Sequence record: OP114734.1
DNA length: 64,000 nt
Strand: one strand, 5' to 3'
DNA from: Escherichia phage vB_ESM-pEJ01
Shown here piece after piece: positions 6,878 through 42,417 of the stretch. The position numbers and the translations under genes are program-made. The first letter of the stretch is position 1, and each line of letters starts with the position of its first letter. Under the pieces are notes generated by a model, which worked only from the letters and a program-made list of their open reading frames with translations, was not told the DNA's origin and searched no databases.

Positions 6878-7191
6878 TATCCTAAAATCCTCACCTTGCG
6901 AACACAGATAGTATTGAGTTCTCGCCGTACCCGTTCTTTTTCATATTCAGGAATTTTATATTCGATACCATCCCGAACAATTTCAGAAGACCGGATTATG
7001 CCAAATTTTCGTTTAGGTACAACCTTGTATTTCGGTTCACCCGCCAATAGACTCTCACAATAATCTATCTGATCACACATTGACGCTAACGCAGCATCAT
7101 GTGTTTCGCAAGTTAGGACGCGACCTTTCGCGTCCACTGAGTATTGAAAGAATCCGTCTTTATCACGATAACATACAGCAAATACATGCAT
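6877..7191 (-). CDS. hypothetical protein (104 aa)
   Basis: ORF track; start overlaps stop of next gene; no recognisable motif. Confidence 0.5.
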   Translation of the reverse strand: MHVFAVCYRDKDGFFQYSVDAKGRVLTCETHDAALASMCDQIDYCESLLAGEPKYKVVPKRKFGIIRSSEIVRDGIEYKIPEYEKERVRRELNTICVRKVRILG

Positions 7192-7946
7192 TATAAACCT
7201 ACCTTCGCTTTCATCAATTCAATCCACGACGCATCAATCGGAAGCCCGTATTTCACGCGTTCTTTTTGTGCTGGCGTTAAGTTCTCATACTTAGAAAGAG
7301 ATTCAATCAAAACGCTGGTATATTTTAGCACGACTTCGGTATTGTTTGCAATAGCCTTAAGTTTTTCTTCTTTCTTGTTGATTTCGCTAAGGGCTTGCTT
7401 GAGATCTGCAATTTTCTGATAACGTTCTTCCATACGGAAGAGAGTATTTTTAATCGCTCGCTCGGCTGCCTCTGCTTTCTCCGGTTCGTTGTGCTTTTTG
7501 TGGCGCTCGATTGCTAACTTCTTTTCTTCGATTGCCATTTCCTGATTTTTGATGCGATTCTCGTTAAGTTCGATCCACTCGATGTACTTCGCACGTAGGG
7601 CAATTTCATCATCAGAAAGTTTACCGTTAGTTCCTAGTTCCTGGATCTCTTTAAGAGATTCGATAGTGTGATTGCCACGGAAAGAATTGTATTTCAGTTT
7701 AACCGGAATTACACTGCCATCAACATATCCTAGATTGCAATCAATGCGCTCTAAGGAGAGTCCATCATCACCTTCACCGAACGCTTCACCGGAATAGGCG
7801 CAATGAGTCTGACGGTAAATGTTGCGCACAGTGACTAAGCTCATAGAGAAGTCTTTGTTGCGACGTGAAGCGCCAGCCATGATAGAGTTCAGACGGAAAA
7901 CAACCAGCGCCAATTCTTCGTTAGATTTAAAAGCAAACAGTTTCAT
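7191..7946 (-). CDS. hypothetical protein with Lys/Glu-rich coiled-coil C-terminal half
   Basis: ORF track 251 aa; AGGAG SD; N-terminal segment HCAYSGEAF...ERIDCNLGYVDGSVIPV weakly HNH-like (uncertain). Confidence 0.5.
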   Translation of the reverse strand: MKLFAFKSNEELALVVFRLNSIMAGASRRNKDFSMSLVTVRNIYRQTHCAYSGEAFGEGDDGLSLERIDCNLGYVDGSVIPVKLKYNSFRGNHTIESLKEIQELGTNGKLSDDEIALRAKYIEWIELNENRIKNQEMAIEEKKLAIERHKKHNEPEKAEAAERAIKNTLFRMEERYQKIADLKQALSEINKKEEKLKAIANNTEVVLKYTSVLIESLSKYENLTPAQKERVKYGLPIDASWIELMKAKVGL

Positions 7947-7975
7947 AATTGATTCTCCTTAGTTGGCATGTGTGT

Positions 7976-8004
7976 ATTATTGTCTATCTGGTTTGTGCTG
8001 TCAA
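7976..8004 (-). promoter_or_regulatory. sigma70-type early promoter (-35 TTGACA at rc 7999-8004)
   Basis: rc of tgtcaa 7999-8004; A/T-rich -10 candidate 17-18 nt downstream; 25 nt before AGGAG SD of gene starting 7946. Confidence 0.35.
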
Positions 8005-8007
8005 CAC

Positions 8008-8511
8008 TTAAATTAAAGAAAATTTGTAAATCTCTATCAGATCGCCATTACACGCGTAAACTTCCTCGATCTCATCAAGGATCATGGTCGTCCCTGTCTT
8101 GTATATGCACTCGCGCTCATCTGCCAACATAGCATACAAAGACAGTCGAGTAGTCGGATTGTCATACTCTTTAGACACCACTCGGTCAATAGCATGTTCG
8201 TAATAATTCATGCAAGGCTTGGTAGGTTTTATTGCAATAATCTTTCCTGTTGCATAAACATCGGTTGCAAAGTCCTCTGCTGTTGATTGCAGTGGCGTAA
8301 AGCTCATAGGACGCTCTACAACGAAAGAATCGCCTACAATTAAGGTATCCAGCTTACGGCCTTCTCTTTTGCTCACACCGCGATACAAGGCTTCATGATG
8401 CACTAACCGCTCAGTCTTTTCAATCAATCCATTAAGGATCGACATATCGATATTTTCTTTAGAGTTCATCACCTCATCAATGATGTTAAGTTCTTCTGGT
8501 GTAAATTGCAT
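8008..8511 (-). CDS. putative mono-ADP-ribosyltransferase (ModA/ModB-like)
   Basis: 167 aa with candidate R-S-E triad: LYRGVS, LQSTAEDF, ADERECIY; syntenic with T4 modA/modB region; start codon uncertain. Confidence 0.4.
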   Translation of the reverse strand: MQFTPEELNIIDEVMNSKENIDMSILNGLIEKTERLVHHEALYRGVSKREGRKLDTLIVGDSFVVERPMSFTPLQSTAEDFATDVYATGKIIAIKPTKPCMNYYEHAIDRVVSKEYDNPTTRLSLYAMLADERECIYKTGTTMILDEIEEVYACNGDLIEIYKFSLI

Positions 8512-8520
8512 AATAAAAAA

Positions 8521-8544
8521 GCCTCCAATCTTTCGACGGGAGGC
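8521..8544 (-). terminator. rho-independent terminator hairpin (gcctcc/gggaggc) followed by U-run on minus transcript
   Basis: rc gives gcctcccgtcgaaagattggaggc then UUUUUUAUUA (8511-8520); lies just 5' of the 8511 start codon. Confidence 0.45.
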
Positions 8545-8574
8545 ATAATAAAACCATGATAGAGTAGTGTCAAC
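8545..8574 (-). promoter_or_regulatory. sigma70-type promoter (-35 TTGACA rc 8569-8574; -10 TATTAT rc 8545-8550)
   Basis: Predicted start falls inside terminator hairpin 8521-8544. Confidence 0.35.
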
Positions 8575-8580
8575 TAATTT

Positions 8581-9105
8581 TTAGTAGCCTCGTTCTTGAC
8601 GGGCGAAGTTTTCAGCATTTTTCAGATAGTACAGAATAAAGAGTTCTTGAGCGTCAATACCCAGCGGGATCATCTTTGACAGAATGAAGTGGATCGCGTC
8701 CACAAATTCAAATTTCACTTCAAGCTGATCTTCCGGTGACAGTTCAGAGAATTTACGCGCTCGCGCTTCTCCGTGGTTCTTTTTCCACATTTTCCAGATT
8801 GCACTTGCATCTTTACCATTGGACATTCCACCCAGCGATGTGTAAAGCTCTCGTGTTTCGTCTGCGATAGCGTCATCCATCCGCTGCATCCAATCCAGCA
8901 TTTCACCGCAAGTCTCTAGCTTAGTTGGATTTGGGACCCAATCAAATTTTTCGGATAATGCAACCTGCAAACCAGTTTGCATTTCGAGCATCACCTGAAA
9001 CGGATCTTTACCTTCTGCAATAGCGTGATGATATGCGGCGATAGCCGCGTTAATATCTTTTTCGTTAACCAGACCAGCACAAGAATTAAATTCTGACATA
9101 TTCAC
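8581..9105 (-). CDS. 56: dCTP pyrophosphatase (dCTPase-dUTPase) gp56
   Basis: DETRELYTSLGGMS, LSPEDQLEVKFE, LYYLKNAENFARQERGY match remembered T4 gp56. Confidence 0.9.
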   Translation of the reverse strand: MNMSEFNSCAGLVNEKDINAAIAAYHHAIAEGKDPFQVMLEMQTGLQVALSEKFDWVPNPTKLETCGEMLDWMQRMDDAIADETRELYTSLGGMSNGKDASAIWKMWKKNHGEARARKFSELSPEDQLEVKFEFVDAIHFILSKMIPLGIDAQELFILYYLKNAENFARQERGY

Positions 9106-9113
9106 CTCATTAA

Positions 9114-10142
9114 TTAAAATTTACAATATTTCATAAACCGCATTTTAGCCATCAGACCTTGTACGGTGTTCTCTTTGATATATTCCATGATCTGGTCGCG
9201 TGTAGCGCCCTCGTCCTGAATCATGGCGTTGACGTCTTTAGAATGCCACGGGCAACGATCCCACAATACAATCTTTTCCCCTGCATTGATAAACTTTTCC
9301 AGTCGGTGCATTGTATCGGCAGACCGTGGTTCCGCATCAAGTACAAACACTCGCTGATCAGGGAAAGGAATTTCATCTAATCCCAAAGTACCGCCAGTAA
9401 TTGCACACCCGTTATCAATAAACAATGAATCGATCGGACCTTCTAAGAAATACACTGGCCTACTCGGATCGGCGCGTTCAAGACCATAGACCTTACTCGC
9501 TAACTCATGAGTTTTAATCGTCATATATTTGGTCTTTCCGTAATCCTTTCTCAATGCTCGCCCCTGAATGGATTCTATCTTGTTCTCGCGGTTAAAGATA
9601 GGAATCACTAAACGCGGTTCAGGTTGTGGATTCTTGAAAGTATCAGCCTTAATGTGATTTGCTACCTTTTGCCATTCTCTCGTGAAATACAGAAGATCCC
9701 ATTTATCGTGGGGAATGCAACGATCACTGACATACTTTATTATAGGATGATTAGCCGGAAGAGTATCTAACCTCTCGCAGAAAGGCAATGTTTGCACTTT
9801 CTTAATCTCCGGCTTTTCTACCTTTTTCAGTGGCTTGAACGTGGTGTTCTTGTGGTCGCCTTGTTCCTTCCGTCGTTCCATAAGCCATTCCCTGAATAGG
9901 TCCGGCTTATATTGTTTAAGAAATTCACCTAACGGCTGATTATAGTTACAGTTGAAGCAACCACAACGCAAACTATCTTTATAGGTATAGATACGGAATC
10001 GCGCTTGAGTATGATTTTTCTTTGAGTCACCGCAGATCGGACAACTACACACCAGCGTAAATGAGCTAGTATGCAACCGTTTAAAATTTCGTTCGCCGTA
10101 TATGGCTTTTTCCGCTATTTCATAATCTGCGTAGTAAATCAT
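9114..10142 (-). CDS. 61: DNA primase gp61
   Basis: 342 aa (same length as T4 gp61); N-terminal zinc-binding cysteines CSCPICGD...CGCFNC; position next to gene 56. Confidence 0.85.
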   Translation of the reverse strand: MIYYADYEIAEKAIYGERNFKRLHTSSFTLVCSCPICGDSKKNHTQARFRIYTYKDSLRCGCFNCNYNQPLGEFLKQYKPDLFREWLMERRKEQGDHKNTTFKPLKKVEKPEIKKVQTLPFCERLDTLPANHPIIKYVSDRCIPHDKWDLLYFTREWQKVANHIKADTFKNPQPEPRLVIPIFNRENKIESIQGRALRKDYGKTKYMTIKTHELASKVYGLERADPSRPVYFLEGPIDSLFIDNGCAITGGTLGLDEIPFPDQRVFVLDAEPRSADTMHRLEKFINAGEKIVLWDRCPWHSKDVNAMIQDEGATRDQIMEYIKENTVQGLMAKMRFMKYCKF

Positions 10143-11766: not shown

Positions 11767-13179
11767 TTAGAAAGTCATGTTATTTGCTAGCTCGTCGAGT
11801 TTTTCTCGTTTCTCGGCTTGCTGTGCGCTTTGTGGTTTAACTTGTGCATTCTCCTGATCTGCGATCTGGTTTGGTACTTCATACCAACGCTGATTGCCTT
11901 TTTTCACACCAACGTTAAACCGTGAATAATAGTTCTTATCACCGTAACGAGACTTGATCTGCTTCATGAGTTGGACGCCCATTTTAGCCAGGTCTTCGGT
12001 TTCGATAACACCCAACATAAAGTCGGCAGTAGCCGGAAGACCTGCCGATTCAGCGGTATCACTCATGTTAAGGTCGGAAGCATCCCAACCCGCGCGGGTA
12101 GTCTGTGCCGCAGTCCAACCAACAACATCCCACTTAACAAAAAATCCTCGCAGTTCTTCCGCAATCGCCTTAACTAGTGTGTAACTATTTTCAGAGTATA
12201 CACGCAAGCGAGACGATGCGCAAATCCCAAGATAGTCAACAATCACAACATCAGGTTTAAACTGTTTCTTGAGTCGCAATTCATTCATTAACGCCTCAAA
12301 GTGATTGGAGTTCGCGCCACCAGTCGGATACTGCTTGATCATCAATTTTCCAACCGGACGATCTCCGATCTTCTTATTCTTAACACGCTTCATACGTGCG
12401 GAATATTCCGCAAAAGAAACATTACCATTATCCAATTCATCTAATGTAATGTCAAGCAAGTTTGCGTCAATACGTTTGGCTACGACATGCTCTGCCATCT
12501 CCATTGAGATATACAATACATCATAACCACATTCCATATAATCCGCAGCAAGAGAACACAGTCCAAGCGATTTGCCAACGTTTACACCAGCAAGCAACAC
12601 GTTTAGCGTTTTTCTTTCCGCCCCTCCTTTCGTGATTTTATTCAACATCGGCAGCTTAAATGGGATCTTATTCGCCTTAGTCTGATATAACAGGAATCGT
12701 TTTTCAAAGTCATTAAACCAGTCATGACCTACATCAGAATCAAACGTAATGGATAGTGCTTCCTGCATAATTTCAGGAATAGCGCCCTCACTAGGCAATT
12801 TCTTATTCTGTTTCTCTTTTGGTAGTTGTGCGTTCGCCTGAATCTCTAGCGCCCGTGACATTGCATTGTACATAGCACGGTCACGAATAAATTTTTCGGT
12901 TTCCTTCATTAACCAATCAAGGTCTTCCGGTGTATTCTCCAGCGAATCGAGAAGAGTTTTAGCCCCTTCATATGTTGTCTGATTGCCTCTCTCCTTGTCT
13001 AAAGCAATCTGTAATGCAGTTGGCGTAGGAATATTGGAATATTCGTCTACGTGCTTTTTAATCAGCTTATAAATCAGTTTTTCTTCGTCTTCGGTGAAGT
13101 AGTCCGCTTTAAGGTGAGGCCATACATTCGTAAAGAATGCGCCATTGTAAATCAACTGTGAAAAGATAGTTTTAATCAT
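11767..13179 (-). CDS. 41: replicative DNA helicase gp41 (DnaB-like)
   Basis: Near-colinear with remembered T4 gp41: LNVLLAGVNVGKSLGLCSLAADY, YISMEMAE, IKSRYGDKN. Confidence 0.93.
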   Translation of the reverse strand: MIKTIFSQLIYNGAFFTNVWPHLKADYFTEDEEKLIYKLIKKHVDEYSNIPTPTALQIALDKERGNQTTYEGAKTLLDSLENTPEDLDWLMKETEKFIRDRAMYNAMSRALEIQANAQLPKEKQNKKLPSEGAIPEIMQEALSITFDSDVGHDWFNDFEKRFLLYQTKANKIPFKLPMLNKITKGGAERKTLNVLLAGVNVGKSLGLCSLAADYMECGYDVLYISMEMAEHVVAKRIDANLLDITLDELDNGNVSFAEYSARMKRVKNKKIGDRPVGKLMIKQYPTGGANSNHFEALMNELRLKKQFKPDVVIVDYLGICASSRLRVYSENSYTLVKAIAEELRGFFVKWDVVGWTAAQTTRAGWDASDLNMSDTAESAGLPATADFMLGVIETEDLAKMGVQLMKQIKSRYGDKNYYSRFNVGVKKGNQRWYEVPNQIADQENAQVKPQSAQQAEKREKLDELANNMTF

Positions 13180-13493
13180 ACGTAGCCCCCAACTACACGC
13201 ATAACAAAGGTCTTGAGTTTATACCAGAAAGTTTCTTTTTTCAACTTTTCTTCTGCTTCTTTGATCTGCGCGGTTAACGCCTTAATGACGTGTGGATATA
13301 CCACATCACGATCTGACGGCGTGGAGTAGTCGACCACAATACCTTTAGTGTCTGGATCGTATTCAACATTATGAATATAGACAATATGATGTTCTCCCTC
13401 TTCATCAACAATTATCAGTTCCTGAATAACTGTCTTCATTGCTTCTTGAATCAAGCTGTGTGCTTCTTCTAAACTTGTTGGTTTCTTATCCAT
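13176..13493 (-). CDS. small acidic protein at the T4 gene-40 position
   Basis: 105-aa ORF between gene 41 and uvsX as in T4; sequence identity not verified. Confidence 0.5.
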   Translation of the reverse strand: MDKKPTSLEEAHSLIQEAMKTVIQELIIVDEEGEHHIVYIHNVEYDPDTKGIVVDYSTPSDRDVVYPHVIKALTAQIKEAEEKLKKETFWYKLKTFVMRVVGGYV

Positions 13494-15667: not shown

Positions 15668-18346
15668 TTAAATGTCAAACAGGTCCGTAAGCGATGCCAC
15701 CTTTTCATATTGCAGCTTTGCAGCCGTGGTAATGTTCTCCAGTGGTTTGACGAAAGTCTTATTAAACAACAAAGGCCAGTCCAACCACTTCAACACCTCT
15801 GATTCAATTTCTGGAGGAATACGAGTACCAGACAACCAACCAAAACAGATTTCTCCAAACGGATTTCGATCTTTAAGCGGTACAATCATAACCTTCTCGC
15901 CTTCACGAATCGGATCTAGTCCGAATTTTCGAGCATTACGATTATAACACAATACACTCTTAACCGCATACGGACAACCCTTAATCGGATACCCGTTTGA
16001 ATCGCTGTATTTCTGTAGGTTGTTTGCAGATGATACCGCAGCAACATCAAGATAGTCAAGTTTTCTAAATTCTTGCTCAAAAATACCGTAGTATTCCTGC
16101 AATGACTCTTCACCTTCCTGCAACATACGGCGAATACATTCTTTCAGTGATTTCTGACATGCTTTAGGGGTGGAGCTACGTTGCGTTTCCAAGCCCATGA
16201 TTTTTAGCTTAGGTTCAGCAAAGCGCGTTCCTTCCATATCCCAAACATTAAGAGCATAACGCTTTTTGCCAGTCCAGAATCCACCGATACCCGCAGATTT
16301 CAACGGAGGACCAGCAATTGCCTCACGGTCCATAAACATCAAGTGCTCATAGTTGTTCATGTACTCGCATAACTCGCGATATCCCTTGTCGATAATAGGT
16401 TCCATTCGATGTTTACCGAAATTATCAAGGAAGTCAACAAGTTTTTCGGTATCGTCGAAACGATCTTCCCCGCCAACCTTATCAACAACATTGTTAACCA
16501 GCACATAAACGGAGTCAGTATCACAATAACGAACATATGCAAAATCGGTTGTTCCGCAAAGCTCGTTTAAGTATTCGTTAATCTTACGCTCAATCCACTG
16601 AATTGCAAGCTGACCGAACAGTGTGATCGCACTAGCGTTACGGAGATCATAAAAACGGAATTTAGGATTCCCCAACGCACCATAAAGTGAGTTGATCAAA
16701 ACTTTTCGAGAAAGCTGGTTTGTATTGCACAAGATCGACTCGTCTTTACATTCTTCCAGCAATTTCTCTAAGGTATCTTTGCTTAATTCAGAAAGCATCG
16801 ATTTAAACGCTTCATCGAAGTCGTGACGCACTTCAACGCTATAGCTAATGGTTCCCCCATAAACATGATTTTCATCGTGTAGAATCGCTTTACATAGTTC
16901 AGCATTGCGATCACATGCCAACATCATGTTTTTGTACTGCTTACGCTGATCGAATACCTTTTTAATCTCAATCGGTACGATACCATGAATATCTTTTCTA
17001 TACATCCATCCGTTAGGCGAGCAAGAATACTCATCACTCGGACGTGGTGCAGTTTTATTGATATACTCGTGCATCGGTGCAGCATCAAAAGATCCAGCGA
17101 TTGTTTCAGGAGAAATATTAACCTGTCGAATAATAGATGGGTACAGACTTGTTAAGTCAAAGCTCATCATCCAACGGTAAGCATTTGGCACAGGTTCTTT
17201 TACAAATGCGCCTGGATACGTCTGCTTAGGCTGTATCTTATTTTCCGGTACTACTTTACCCTCAGCTTTCAGAGATCCGAAGATAATAGCATCCCATACT
17301 TTCATCGGGTTATAAACATGGTTAAATTTAATCTTTGCATAGAAACATAGACTATACACAAGATCGATAAATCCACGCTTTTTATCAATCGCCAGCACAC
17401 GATCAACGTCGCCGATGTTATAATCGATGTAAAGTTGATGGTTGTCATCACGCAATTTCTTTAACGGACCATCATAATCAACCTTACCGATTCCTGTCTC
17501 ATATTCAGCAACATAATCTAACGCATATGTTGGTTGAGTCGTAAAGCTAAATTTCTTGTACAGGTCAATATAATCAAGGCTTTCGATCCCCATGATCGTA
17601 AATGCTTCACGCTCGTTGCCAAAATCATCCTGTGAGATTCTGGATTTAATCTTACCGCACGGGCTTAGACGGTTAGCGGTTCTACTTCCGAACTTATTAC
17701 TGATACGTTTAATGATATATGGAATATCGAATGTTTCTGTGTTCCAGCCAGTGAAACCAACGGGTCGGTTTTCCTCAAAGAATCGGATGTATTCTAACAG
17801 CAATTCATCTTCTGTGTCATAGACGTTATAAACAACGCGCTCTACAATATCAGGTCGAAGAATAGACTTGCTTGCTTCCCAGATTTCACCGTTTTTTCCT
17901 TTCAAATCAAATACAAAGAAACGATCATGTACGGAATCATAATGCGTAATTGCATCGATAGGATATTTCGCTTCTTCTGGTTTAGGAAATTCTGGGGCAG
18001 TGACCTCAATATCAACCCATGCTACACGGATTTTATTTCGGTCATATCGAATCTCGCCTTTATACGTATCAGACAGATAGGAGATGATAAAATCATCCAT
18101 CCCTAGTGCCTCCTGCCCCATTTCTCCCATCTTTTTACGCCATTTGTTGGCCTCGTTCATAGATGGGAATTTTTTAGCAATGCAAGGCTTGCCATAGATA
18201 TCTTTATAATTCGTAACCATACCAGGCGCGGCATGATGAAATAATGTTGGCGTATATTCAACGTAACGCTCTTGTTCTTGTCCAGCATCATCAATATAAC
18301 GCTCGTAGATCTTATCACCTACTCGCTCACATGACAGAAAATACAT
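15668..18346 (-). CDS. 43: DNA polymerase gp43 (family B)
   Basis: Colinear with remembered T4 gp43 (YGKPC, SFDLTSLYPSIIRQVNISPET, YCDTDS); start set to ATG at 18344-18346 with AAGGAG SD (track starts at upstream GTG 18376). Confidence 0.95.
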   Translation of the reverse strand: MYFLSCERVGDKIYERYIDDAGQEQERYVEYTPTLFHHAAPGMVTNYKDIYGKPCIAKKFPSMNEANKWRKKMGEMGQEALGMDDFIISYLSDTYKGEIRYDRNKIRVAWVDIEVTAPEFPKPEEAKYPIDAITHYDSVHDRFFVFDLKGKNGEIWEASKSILRPDIVERVVYNVYDTEDELLLEYIRFFEENRPVGFTGWNTETFDIPYIIKRISNKFGSRTANRLSPCGKIKSRISQDDFGNEREAFTIMGIESLDYIDLYKKFSFTTQPTYALDYVAEYETGIGKVDYDGPLKKLRDDNHQLYIDYNIGDVDRVLAIDKKRGFIDLVYSLCFYAKIKFNHVYNPMKVWDAIIFGSLKAEGKVVPENKIQPKQTYPGAFVKEPVPNAYRWMMSFDLTSLYPSIIRQVNISPETIAGSFDAAPMHEYINKTAPRPSDEYSCSPNGWMYRKDIHGIVPIEIKKVFDQRKQYKNMMLACDRNAELCKAILHDENHVYGGTISYSVEVRHDFDEAFKSMLSELSKDTLEKLLEECKDESILCNTNQLSRKVLINSLYGALGNPKFRFYDLRNASAITLFGQLAIQWIERKINEYLNELCGTTDFAYVRYCDTDSVYVLVNNVVDKVGGEDRFDDTEKLVDFLDNFGKHRMEPIIDKGYRELCEYMNNYEHLMFMDREAIAGPPLKSAGIGGFWTGKKRYALNVWDMEGTRFAEPKLKIMGLETQRSSTPKACQKSLKECIRRMLQEGEESLQEYYGIFEQEFRKLDYLDVAAVSSANNLQKYSDSNGYPIKGCPYAVKSVLCYNRNARKFGLDPIREGEKVMIVPLKDRNPFGEICFGWLSGTRIPPEIESEVLKWLDWPLLFNKTFVKPLENITTAAKLQYEKVASLTDLFDI

Positions 18347-42383: not shown

Positions 42384-42417
42384 TATATGATAACCGCATT
42401 TTCATGTCAACAGTTTT

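Follow-up and report, generated by a model that had tools for sequence, protein, structure and literature searches.

Two described systems of T4-like phages stand closest to the element that we examine here, the 69-nucleotide (nt) gap between gene 56 and modB in a 64,000-nt stretch of Escherichia phage vB_ESM-pEJ01 (sequence record OP114734.1; "the window" below means this whole stretch). The first are the promoter/stem-loop cassettes known as PeSLs, each a strong sigma-70 promoter joined to a stem-loop, which were defined in phages RB49 and phi1, where 51 and 52 of them were catalogued, and which fall into five subclasses by the position of the stem-loop, one being downstream of the −10 hexamer (Arbiol 2010, PMC2839356). 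In that study, one PeSL stem-loop equalled rrnB T1 in terminating transcription, and a PeSL promoter reached ~13,000 Miller units; PeSL-mediated indels and mini-circles are also described there and in later work (Arbiol 2010, PMC2839356; Comeau 2014, PMC4122927). The second system is the masking of translation initiation regions (TIRs) in T4, where long transcripts keep the Shine-Dalgarno (SD) sequence or AUG of genes e, soc, 49 and I-TevI sequestered and where, for gene e and I-TevI, a late promoter that specifies the structure's 5′ strand gives rise to a translatable RNA (Uzan & Miller 2010, PMC3014915). A 1.3-kb query around the site is 99% identical to the RB49-like phages PHB13, RB49, GEC-3S and phi1, and judging by this identity the window is from an RB49-like T4-type myovirus of the genus Krischvirus. 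Coordinates below are those of the window, to which 909 is added to obtain RB49 positions.

We consider it probable that the 56/modB gap is a composite, PeSL-type promoter/stem-loop cassette that makes expression of modB depend on where its RNA begins. Polymerases arriving from genes 61 and 56 would transcribe the whole palindrome, and the resulting GC hairpin with its run of six U residues (U6) would act as an intrinsic terminator, halting most of them just before the modB AUG. Read-through RNA would retain the hairpin, and ribosomes would be kept off modB on such RNA because the 3′ arm holds GGAGG, the only SD candidate for this gene. The cassette's own sigma-70 early promoter is predicted to start RNA immediately beyond the 5′ arm, some 7–8 nt downstream of the −10; since the hairpin could not form on it, this RNA would escape both termination and SD hiding and be translated. 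The replication genes (61–56) would in this manner be insulated from the host-takeover genes (modB, srd), so that the locus shows a compact genome parting the two groups within 69 nt, and ModB synthesis would depend strictly on the brief time in which the gene's own immediate-early promoter is active, giving a short pulse.

The hairpin, from 8544 to 8521, reads GCCUCC-C-GUC-GAAA-GAU-U-GGAGGC, that is, six base pairs, a 1×1 mismatch, three further base pairs and a GAAA loop, with seven of its nine pairs G-C and U6 beginning at the base after the stem. In a 46-nt context it folds at −15.0 kcal/mol, against −6.5 ± 2.5 for shuffled sequences (z = −3.35, or −4.1 when the tail is added), and it is kept in both the minimum free energy and the centroid structures of a 121-nt context. 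All five nucleotides of GGAGG are paired in these structures, with partners upstream of the predicted transcription start site (TSS), and the AUG is unpaired. Folding of the RNA from the predicted TSS at 8538 yields only −1.1 kcal/mol, compared with −15.0 when the −10 region is included; the 5′ arm is present only in RNAs begun upstream, and as the predicted start lies just past it, own-promoter RNAs should be unable to fold the hairpin. Nor should a ribosome terminating on gene 56 block folding, to judge from its stop codon 36 nt upstream. The element resembles ordinary intrinsic terminators of E. coli and its phages in having a GC-rich hairpin of this stability, a U6 run at once after it and a position downstream of a co-oriented gene, and differs from them in that its nucleotides serve twice: the 5′ arm also makes up positions −6 to −1 of the promoter, the 3′ arm supplies the SD of the next gene, and the terminator tail is the SD-to-AUG spacer.

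The modB promoter, TTGACA-17-TATTAT, matches the consensus at 11 of 12 positions. Sites with at least 11 matches number 35 on the minus strand and one on the plus strand, against 1.2 ± 1.1 in dinucleotide shuffles, from which we take this class of strong promoter to be real and oriented with the genes. Together with the −35, the A-rich stretch upstream reads aaaaattaGTTGACA, a T4-type early-promoter context whose equivalent is aaaaagttGTTTAC at T4 modB and aaaaagtaGTTTACA in RB69; early promoters of RB49 have an A-rich region at −40 to −44 and favour G at −33 and C at −3 to −1 (Nolan 2006). The palindrome GCCTCC-N6-20-GGAGGC occurs once in the 64 kb, where 0.01 occurrences are expected, and this single occurrence within the window rules out the hairpin as a repeated element. 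A general terminator scan of the window did not list the 8521–8544 hairpin, but its rule called for a contiguous stem with a 3–8-nt loop and the internal mismatch breaks the stem, so that the omission is not evidence against a terminator. An Rfam search of 8300–8800 returned sub-threshold terminator-like leaders only; the best, L10_leader, scored 24.9 bits where 44 is the gathering threshold.

That promoter-like and terminator-like motifs fell together here by chance, with no function, is an explanation to which we give next to no credence. Consensus scans do yield many weak matches, and motifs of either kind are nearly as frequent in shuffled sequence (63 promoter-like sites vs 53 in shuffles, and 17 terminator-like sites vs 14). 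The strong promoter sites, however, are 30-fold enriched and strand-specific, the hairpin stands out from shuffles at z scores of −3.4 to −4.1, the cassette is 93–97% conserved among relatives against 73–75% for the coding flanks, and the same elements have been predicted independently in GEC-3S, in Ec_Makalu_002 and by Nolan (2006).

The GEC-3S record annotates the −35 and −10 of the modB promoter, and the Ec_Makalu_002 record annotates a terminator here with a ribosome-binding site inside it, at the position of GGAGG. For RB49, supplementary data list an early promoter, Pe:9496 (9446–9496, minus strand), and a TransTerm terminator, 'modB<--56' (9430–9453, score 100) (Nolan 2006). The terminator corresponds exactly to 8521–8544 of the window, the 3′ end of the 51-nt promoter model, 9446, corresponds to 8537, and the two overlap by 8 nt. 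A preliminary description of this DNA, made from its letters, had placed a GC hairpin at 8521–8544 and a U-run directly upstream of the ATG at 8511, and every one of these elements is found, on the minus strand; of the promoter-like element that it reported, TATTAT at 8545–8550 is as described, and TTGACA is present but lies at 8573–8568 and not at 8569–8574. The canonical anatomy, the RB49 TransTerm score and the Ec_Makalu_002 annotation likewise favour its reading of hairpin and U-run as a putative terminator, and its proposal that the promoter's transcripts begin within the hairpin agrees with the prediction of 8538 or 8537 from the 7-nt rule, with the end of the RB49 promoter model and with the −1.1 kcal/mol fold. 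The cassette as an object is already known, given that both its parts, promoter and terminator, date as predictions from 2006, that its class has had a definition since 2010 and that escape through an internal promoter has long been described in T4; it is an ordinary case of kinds already known, and the logic conserved in it is of modest interest. For annotation, the lesson is that overlapping promoter and terminator calls in T4-like phages make up a functional unit and are not in conflict.

Table 1. Features of the 56/modB cassette and its neighbouring genes, in window coordinates and in order of transcription.
Feature	Position	Strand	Remarks
Primase gene 61	9114-10142	−	
Gene 56, dCTP/dUTP pyrophosphatase	8581..9105	−	Open reading frame (ORF) list; Pfam dUTPase_2; gp56 dCTPase in RB49, GEC-3S and other relatives
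Gene 56 stop codon TAA	8583-8581	−	36 nt before hairpin
A-rich, UP-like stretch TAAAAATTAG	8574..8583	−	Directly upstream of −35
−35 hexamer TTGACA (GTTGACA with preceding G)	8573-8568	−	minus_35_signal in GEC-3S
Spacer, 17 nt	8551..8567	−	Includes TATCAT 8561-8556
−10 hexamer TATTAT	8550-8545	−	minus_10_signal in GEC-3S; inside RB49 early promoter Pe:9496 (Nolan 2006)
Outer 5′ arm GCCUCC	8539..8544	−	Promoter positions −6 to −1; from the fold
Predicted transcription start, C8538 (7th nt after −10) or G8537 (8th nt)	8537..8538	−	From sigma-70 spacing
Apical hairpin: C.U mismatch 8538/8527, 3-bp stem GUC/GAU, GAAA tetraloop 8534-8531	8527..8538	−	
Outer 3′ arm GGAGGC	8521..8526	−	Holds GGAGG, 8526-8522
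U-run UUUUUUAUU	8512..8520	−	Putative terminator tail and SD-to-AUG spacer; U6 8520-8515, then AUU
modB start codon ATG	8511	−	
modB-like ADP-ribosyltransferase gene, 167 amino acids	8008..8511	−	ORF list; annotated ModB in RB49, phi1 and GEC-3S
srd	7191-7946	−	

Were transcription to begin upstream of 8544, at the spacer TATAAT/TATCAT or at an atypical site, the hairpin would lie inside the modB messenger RNA and could work as an attenuator in the leader, stabilise the 5′ end or brake modB translation constitutively. A perfect TATAAT does stand at the equivalent of 8556–8561 in most relatives (loci L001–L005, L007 and L037–L039), and the TSS of the window phage is a predicted one. We nevertheless hold an upstream start to be extremely unlikely. 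The spacer hexamer is 6 nt from TTGACA, the best −35 at 17 nt upstream of it is CTAAAA, with three of six matches, and it has decayed to TATCAT in the window, which together rule it out as an alternative promoter; TTGACA and TATTAT, by comparison, form the near-perfect promoter described above, and a transcript carrying the full hairpin and U6 would terminate itself before reaching modB. Moreover, the T4 primer for the 5′ end of the modA–modB transcript stops at G13149 (in the primer list of bioRxiv 10.1101/2024.04.04.588121), which comes directly 3′ of the 5′ arm as the 8th nt past the −10, and by analogy this end lends indirect support to a start after the 5′ arm in the window phage. In one IMG/VR contig (L004), the −10 itself appears as the variant TATTGT. 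Early 5′ ends of RB49 were reportedly mapped by Desplats in 2002.

Compared with described PeSLs, the modB cassette comes from the same phage group and shares with them a strong early promoter of sigma-70 consensus, an AT-rich upstream region and a stable stem-loop in or next to the promoter, in this case beginning at the first base after the −10. It is intergenic, between the upstream stop codon TAA (8583–8581) and the downstream SD and ATG (8511), and its proposed role of stopping or attenuating upstream transcription while starting a new transcript is that of a PeSL; single cases, described below, are suggestive of recombination at the cassette. It differs in lying between two conserved genes of known function, whereas PeSLs favour hyperplastic regions upstream of ORFans; as "a few" PeSLs were allowed in core modules, location is a tendency and not a strict criterion (Arbiol 2010, PMC2839356). 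Its stem is GCCUCC/GGAGGC where PeSL stems are often polyG/polyC. Occlusion of an SD by the stem-loop is not discussed in the accessible portions of the PeSL papers, and in the accessible text of Arbiol 2010 (PMC2839356) modB is not named and neither translation nor ribosomes are mentioned.

Within Krischvirus, the hairpin stem is identical in all genomes and metagenome contigs examined, comprising seven genome or viral-contig loci and three metagenome contigs that came from a flank-anchored pattern scan; a scan of viral contigs returned only two contigs already in the comparison. The sole differences in hairpin and tail are a change of U8527 to C at the C.U mismatch (L005) and U7 in place of U6 (L005 and L038). 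L005, an IMG/VR contig and the most divergent relative, with a ModB 75% identical in amino acids, has a cassette that is 93% and a hairpin with U-run that is 97% identical to those of the window, compared with 75% for the 3′ part of gene 56 and 73% for modB at the DNA level, and the region downstream of modB is again 95% identical. Over the extent compared (L005 400–1500 with window 7800–8911), modB looks like a divergent, swapped module between conserved regulatory cassettes, at least by this pattern of identities. Homologues of intermediate divergence are scarce in the collections searched, tblastn of the phage collection giving ModB relatives only at ≥98% or <35% identity and IMG/VR the single relative at 75%. 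In phage JSE (L006 524–1562), gene 56 and modB are separated by an inserted homing-endonuclease gene that lies on the opposite strand, and sequence homologous to the window begins again within the promoter spacer, directly behind the common TTGACA, a pattern that suggests a recombination or homing junction at the cassette. In phage KFS-EC (L007 463–1055), a gap of ~590 nt without an annotated gene separates primase from gene 56, which has a divergent allele as its 3′ part, and only from 8653 does homology to the window set in.

The L005 and JSE patterns fit a PeSL role in recombination, and high conservation of the cassette is for this reason not clean evidence of selection at the RNA level. 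One could go further and regard the cassette as mainly a DNA-level device, a patch of homology for PeSL-mediated modular shuffling in which effects on RNA are secondary; the indels and mini-circles ascribed to PeSLs, the JSE insertion and the divergent modB of L005 between its conserved cassettes all speak for such a role. It is compatible, however, with a function in RNA, and since the window holds the hairpin only once, homology could be provided by the promoter part alone. The compensatory changes in T-even leaders and the specificity for modB, to which we turn below, point instead to selection on RNA pairing, and we think it very unlikely that recombination is the cassette's main purpose.

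The reading that we prefer, a cassette in which the origin of the RNA decides whether modB is translated, brings the locus close to the T4 masking systems. As in those, long modB transcripts derived from upstream are predicted to bury the SD in a helix, and RNA from an internal promoter is predicted to be without the 5′ strand. In gene e and I-TevI, by contrast, the promoter is late (gp55, TATAAATA) and translation is delayed until the late period. No TATAAATA late promoter is found in the 56/modB gap, and because the modB promoter is of the sigma-70 early type, translation would be held to the period in which early promoters are active. The modB helix further differs in its trailing U-run, on account of which it should terminate, and in leaving the AUG itself unpaired, so that the cassette works like the T4 TIR-masking family but is not a strict member. 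The preliminary description had likened the site to T4 arrangements in which read-through transcripts are terminated or masked and promoter-proximal ones escape; genes e, soc, 49 and I-TevI bear out the precedent, and the likeness stops at promoter class, which is late in T4 and early here. With this qualification, its three-part interpretation is supported by the sequence, by comparison with relatives and by the literature, and it had included neither the identity of the 3′ arm with the SD nor the kinship to PeSLs.

The same layout recurs directly upstream of modB in T4, RB69, JS98, S16, Q7622 and ten IMG/VR contigs (L009 2131–2200, equal to T4 13130–13190; L008 1097–1160 in RB69; L010, L011, L012 and L015–L029). 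ModB of these T-even phages is <35% identical to that of Krischvirus (28–35% by tblastn), and the upstream neighbours differ. Their modB promoters have GTTTACA, a 16–17-nt spacer and, in 10 of 12 leaders, the −10 TATGAT, and in the 12 distinct leaders a helix of −9.9 to −19 kcal/mol reaches from the −10 hexamer as far as the AUG and weakens to between 0 and −1.8 kcal/mol when folding starts at the predicted TSS. Common to both groups are the early promoter and a stretch, at the −10 or just after it, that is absent from own-promoter RNA and pairs with GGAGG in the 3′ arm. In the T-even leaders, however, the 5′ arm begins inside the −10 hexamer, with TATGAT pairing to AUCAUG, the 3′ arm extends through the AUG, and no U-run follows, for which reason the structure can only mask and not terminate. 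RNAalifold on the 12 aligned leaders gives 12 pairs, three of them with compensatory double changes, such as columns 7–32, which are AU in six and GC in five sequences, and columns 8–31, which are GC in six and AU in five. In this alignment, 97.2% of cells are paired, compared with 32–56% when the register is slid, and the covariation score of 0.311 exceeds the 0.223 ± 0.019 of shuffled alignments, none of 500 reaching it. In RB69 (13477–13490; L008), a separate TransTerm hairpin, GGUCC-UGAU-GGACC, labelled 'modB<--RB69ORF020c', lies just upstream of the modB promoter −35 and is distinct from the masking helix that runs from −10 to AUG.

Among the genes compared, structure of this kind is most marked at modB. 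No SD-masking hairpin is present in leaders of the modA type (JS98, RB69, phiC120 and L030–L035), whose folds come to −0.6 to −2.6 kcal/mol, and a hairpin at −8.6 in SP18 modA is unrelated to the SD. When promoter-proximal starts were censused in three genomes, modB had the most extreme TSS-dependent structure in each: −13.9 among 28 starts in the window (next −8.1), −16.3 among 9 in the first 50 kb of T4, and −11.8 among 12 in the first 45 kb of RB69 (next −4.0). The only other strong case was T4 dmd, at −11.1. In its leader (L036; promoter 20611, ATG ~20553), the −10 TATAGT and the next bases pair with the SD-to-AUG region at −11.1 kcal/mol, and at 0 from the predicted TSS; dmd of RB69 is not promoter-proximal.

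A plainer account of the window locus is that the terminator of the 61–56 unit and the promoter of the next were packed together by genome compaction, with the overlap with GGAGG incidental and no role in translation. We regard this as unlikely. In its favour, the terminator anatomy is canonical, GGAGG makes a convenient GC-rich arm, and the accessible PeSL papers give promoter and terminator roles only. If termination is efficient, few read-through RNAs would be left to mask, and the SD mask would be largely redundant in the window phage; the 3′ arm, besides, leaves the AUG uncovered outside the helix. Other points weigh against our own reading. GGAGG lies 10 nt before the AUG, where this genome usually has 7–8 nt, initiation may be weakened or conditioned by the GC-rich stretch from −6 to −1, and the RB49 modB promoter has a modest hidden Markov model score, 11.3 against 28.9 for the neighbouring srd promoter (Nolan 2006). 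The 5′ and 3′ ends of Krischvirus modB RNA are themselves predictions. Because the Krischvirus hairpin does not vary, it offers no covariation evidence either way, and its conservation could reflect recombination or gene conversion at PeSLs in place of selection on RNA structure. The compensatory changes in the T-even leaders may go back to only one or two evolutionary events, as these leaders are phylogenetically related. Against mere juxtaposition, the T-even leaders keep the pairing of pre-TSS sequence with the SD and AUG without a U-run, leaving masking as the only obvious role, TSS-dependent structure is greatest at modB in each of the three genomes, and a strong SD-burying hairpin is found at only one of the 28 promoter-proximal gene starts in the window.

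Taken beyond Krischvirus, dependence of modB on RNA origin would become a shared strategy. It is possible, if somewhat short of probable, that at least six T4-like genera gate ModB translation by transcript origin, through an SD/AUG-masking helix whose 5′ arm sits in the −10/discriminator of the gene's own immediate-early promoter; only RNAs from that promoter would then make ModB, synthesis would end when early promoters shut off, and the U-run added in Krischvirus would turn the helix into a terminator. If true, this would be a conserved early-promoter counterpart of the late-gene trick of T4 e and soc, seemingly aimed at host-takeover genes that are dangerous when over-made (modB and possibly T4 dmd). 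The recurrence of the same logic at modB in distant T4-like genera, together with the compensatory changes, suggests strong selection on the dosage and timing of ModB. We found no description of an SD in the hairpin arm of the 56/modB cassette in the accessible literature, though an earlier one may exist; nor did we meet there a cross-genus modB mask embedded in an early promoter, its compensatory arms, the contrast with modA or the leading place of modB in the three censuses, for which we assert no priority.

ModB modifies the translation apparatus (S1, EF-Tu and trigger factor) and attaches RNA chains to host proteins. According to the literature it is lethal when over-expressed, and T4 proteomics classes it as early; the cassette may serve to limit such a protein. 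RB49 is without MotA and middle promoters (Nolan 2006), and read-through from early promoters would for this reason be the expected source of prolonged transcription across this region of the window phage. The modB leader structure offers a simple, testable handle on ModB expression in T4. All genes of the neighbourhood are on the minus strand, in the order 61, 56, modB and srd, with dda.1 and dda further downstream, and it is transcripts of gene 56, as the upstream gene, that run into the cassette.

Other promoters of the window, all on the minus strand, also carry leader structures. Two, at 15678–15620 and 4032–3973, match the consensus at 12 and 11 of 12 positions and have hairpins 1 nt after the −10 of −23.7 and −21.5 kcal/mol, which lose most of their stability when folded from the predicted TSS; both are without a U-run and without an arm that holds an SD. 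At 1557–1508, a 13-bp hairpin, AAGGGAGAUUCUC...GGGAGUCUCCCUU, is closed over a 6-nt loop that is itself the −10 TATAAT of a promoter with 12 of 12 matches; the hairpin has a U-rich tail behind it and fits the PeSL subclass "overlapping the −10". Between ~42000 and 62000, many strong promoters (for example 61721, 59731, 58769, 46329 and 43086) are followed by a near-identical leader, ACACCCATCGAAACGAAACACAC...GGAGAATCAAAATG, a similarity that indicates a repeated family of promoter-leader cassettes upstream of small ORFs. The second-ranked TSS-dependent leader of the window lies in the same region, at 42410–42360 (free-energy difference, ddG, −8.1), and there an inner hairpin is enclosed by pairing of the −10 TATAAT with AUUAUA, which stands shortly before the AUG.

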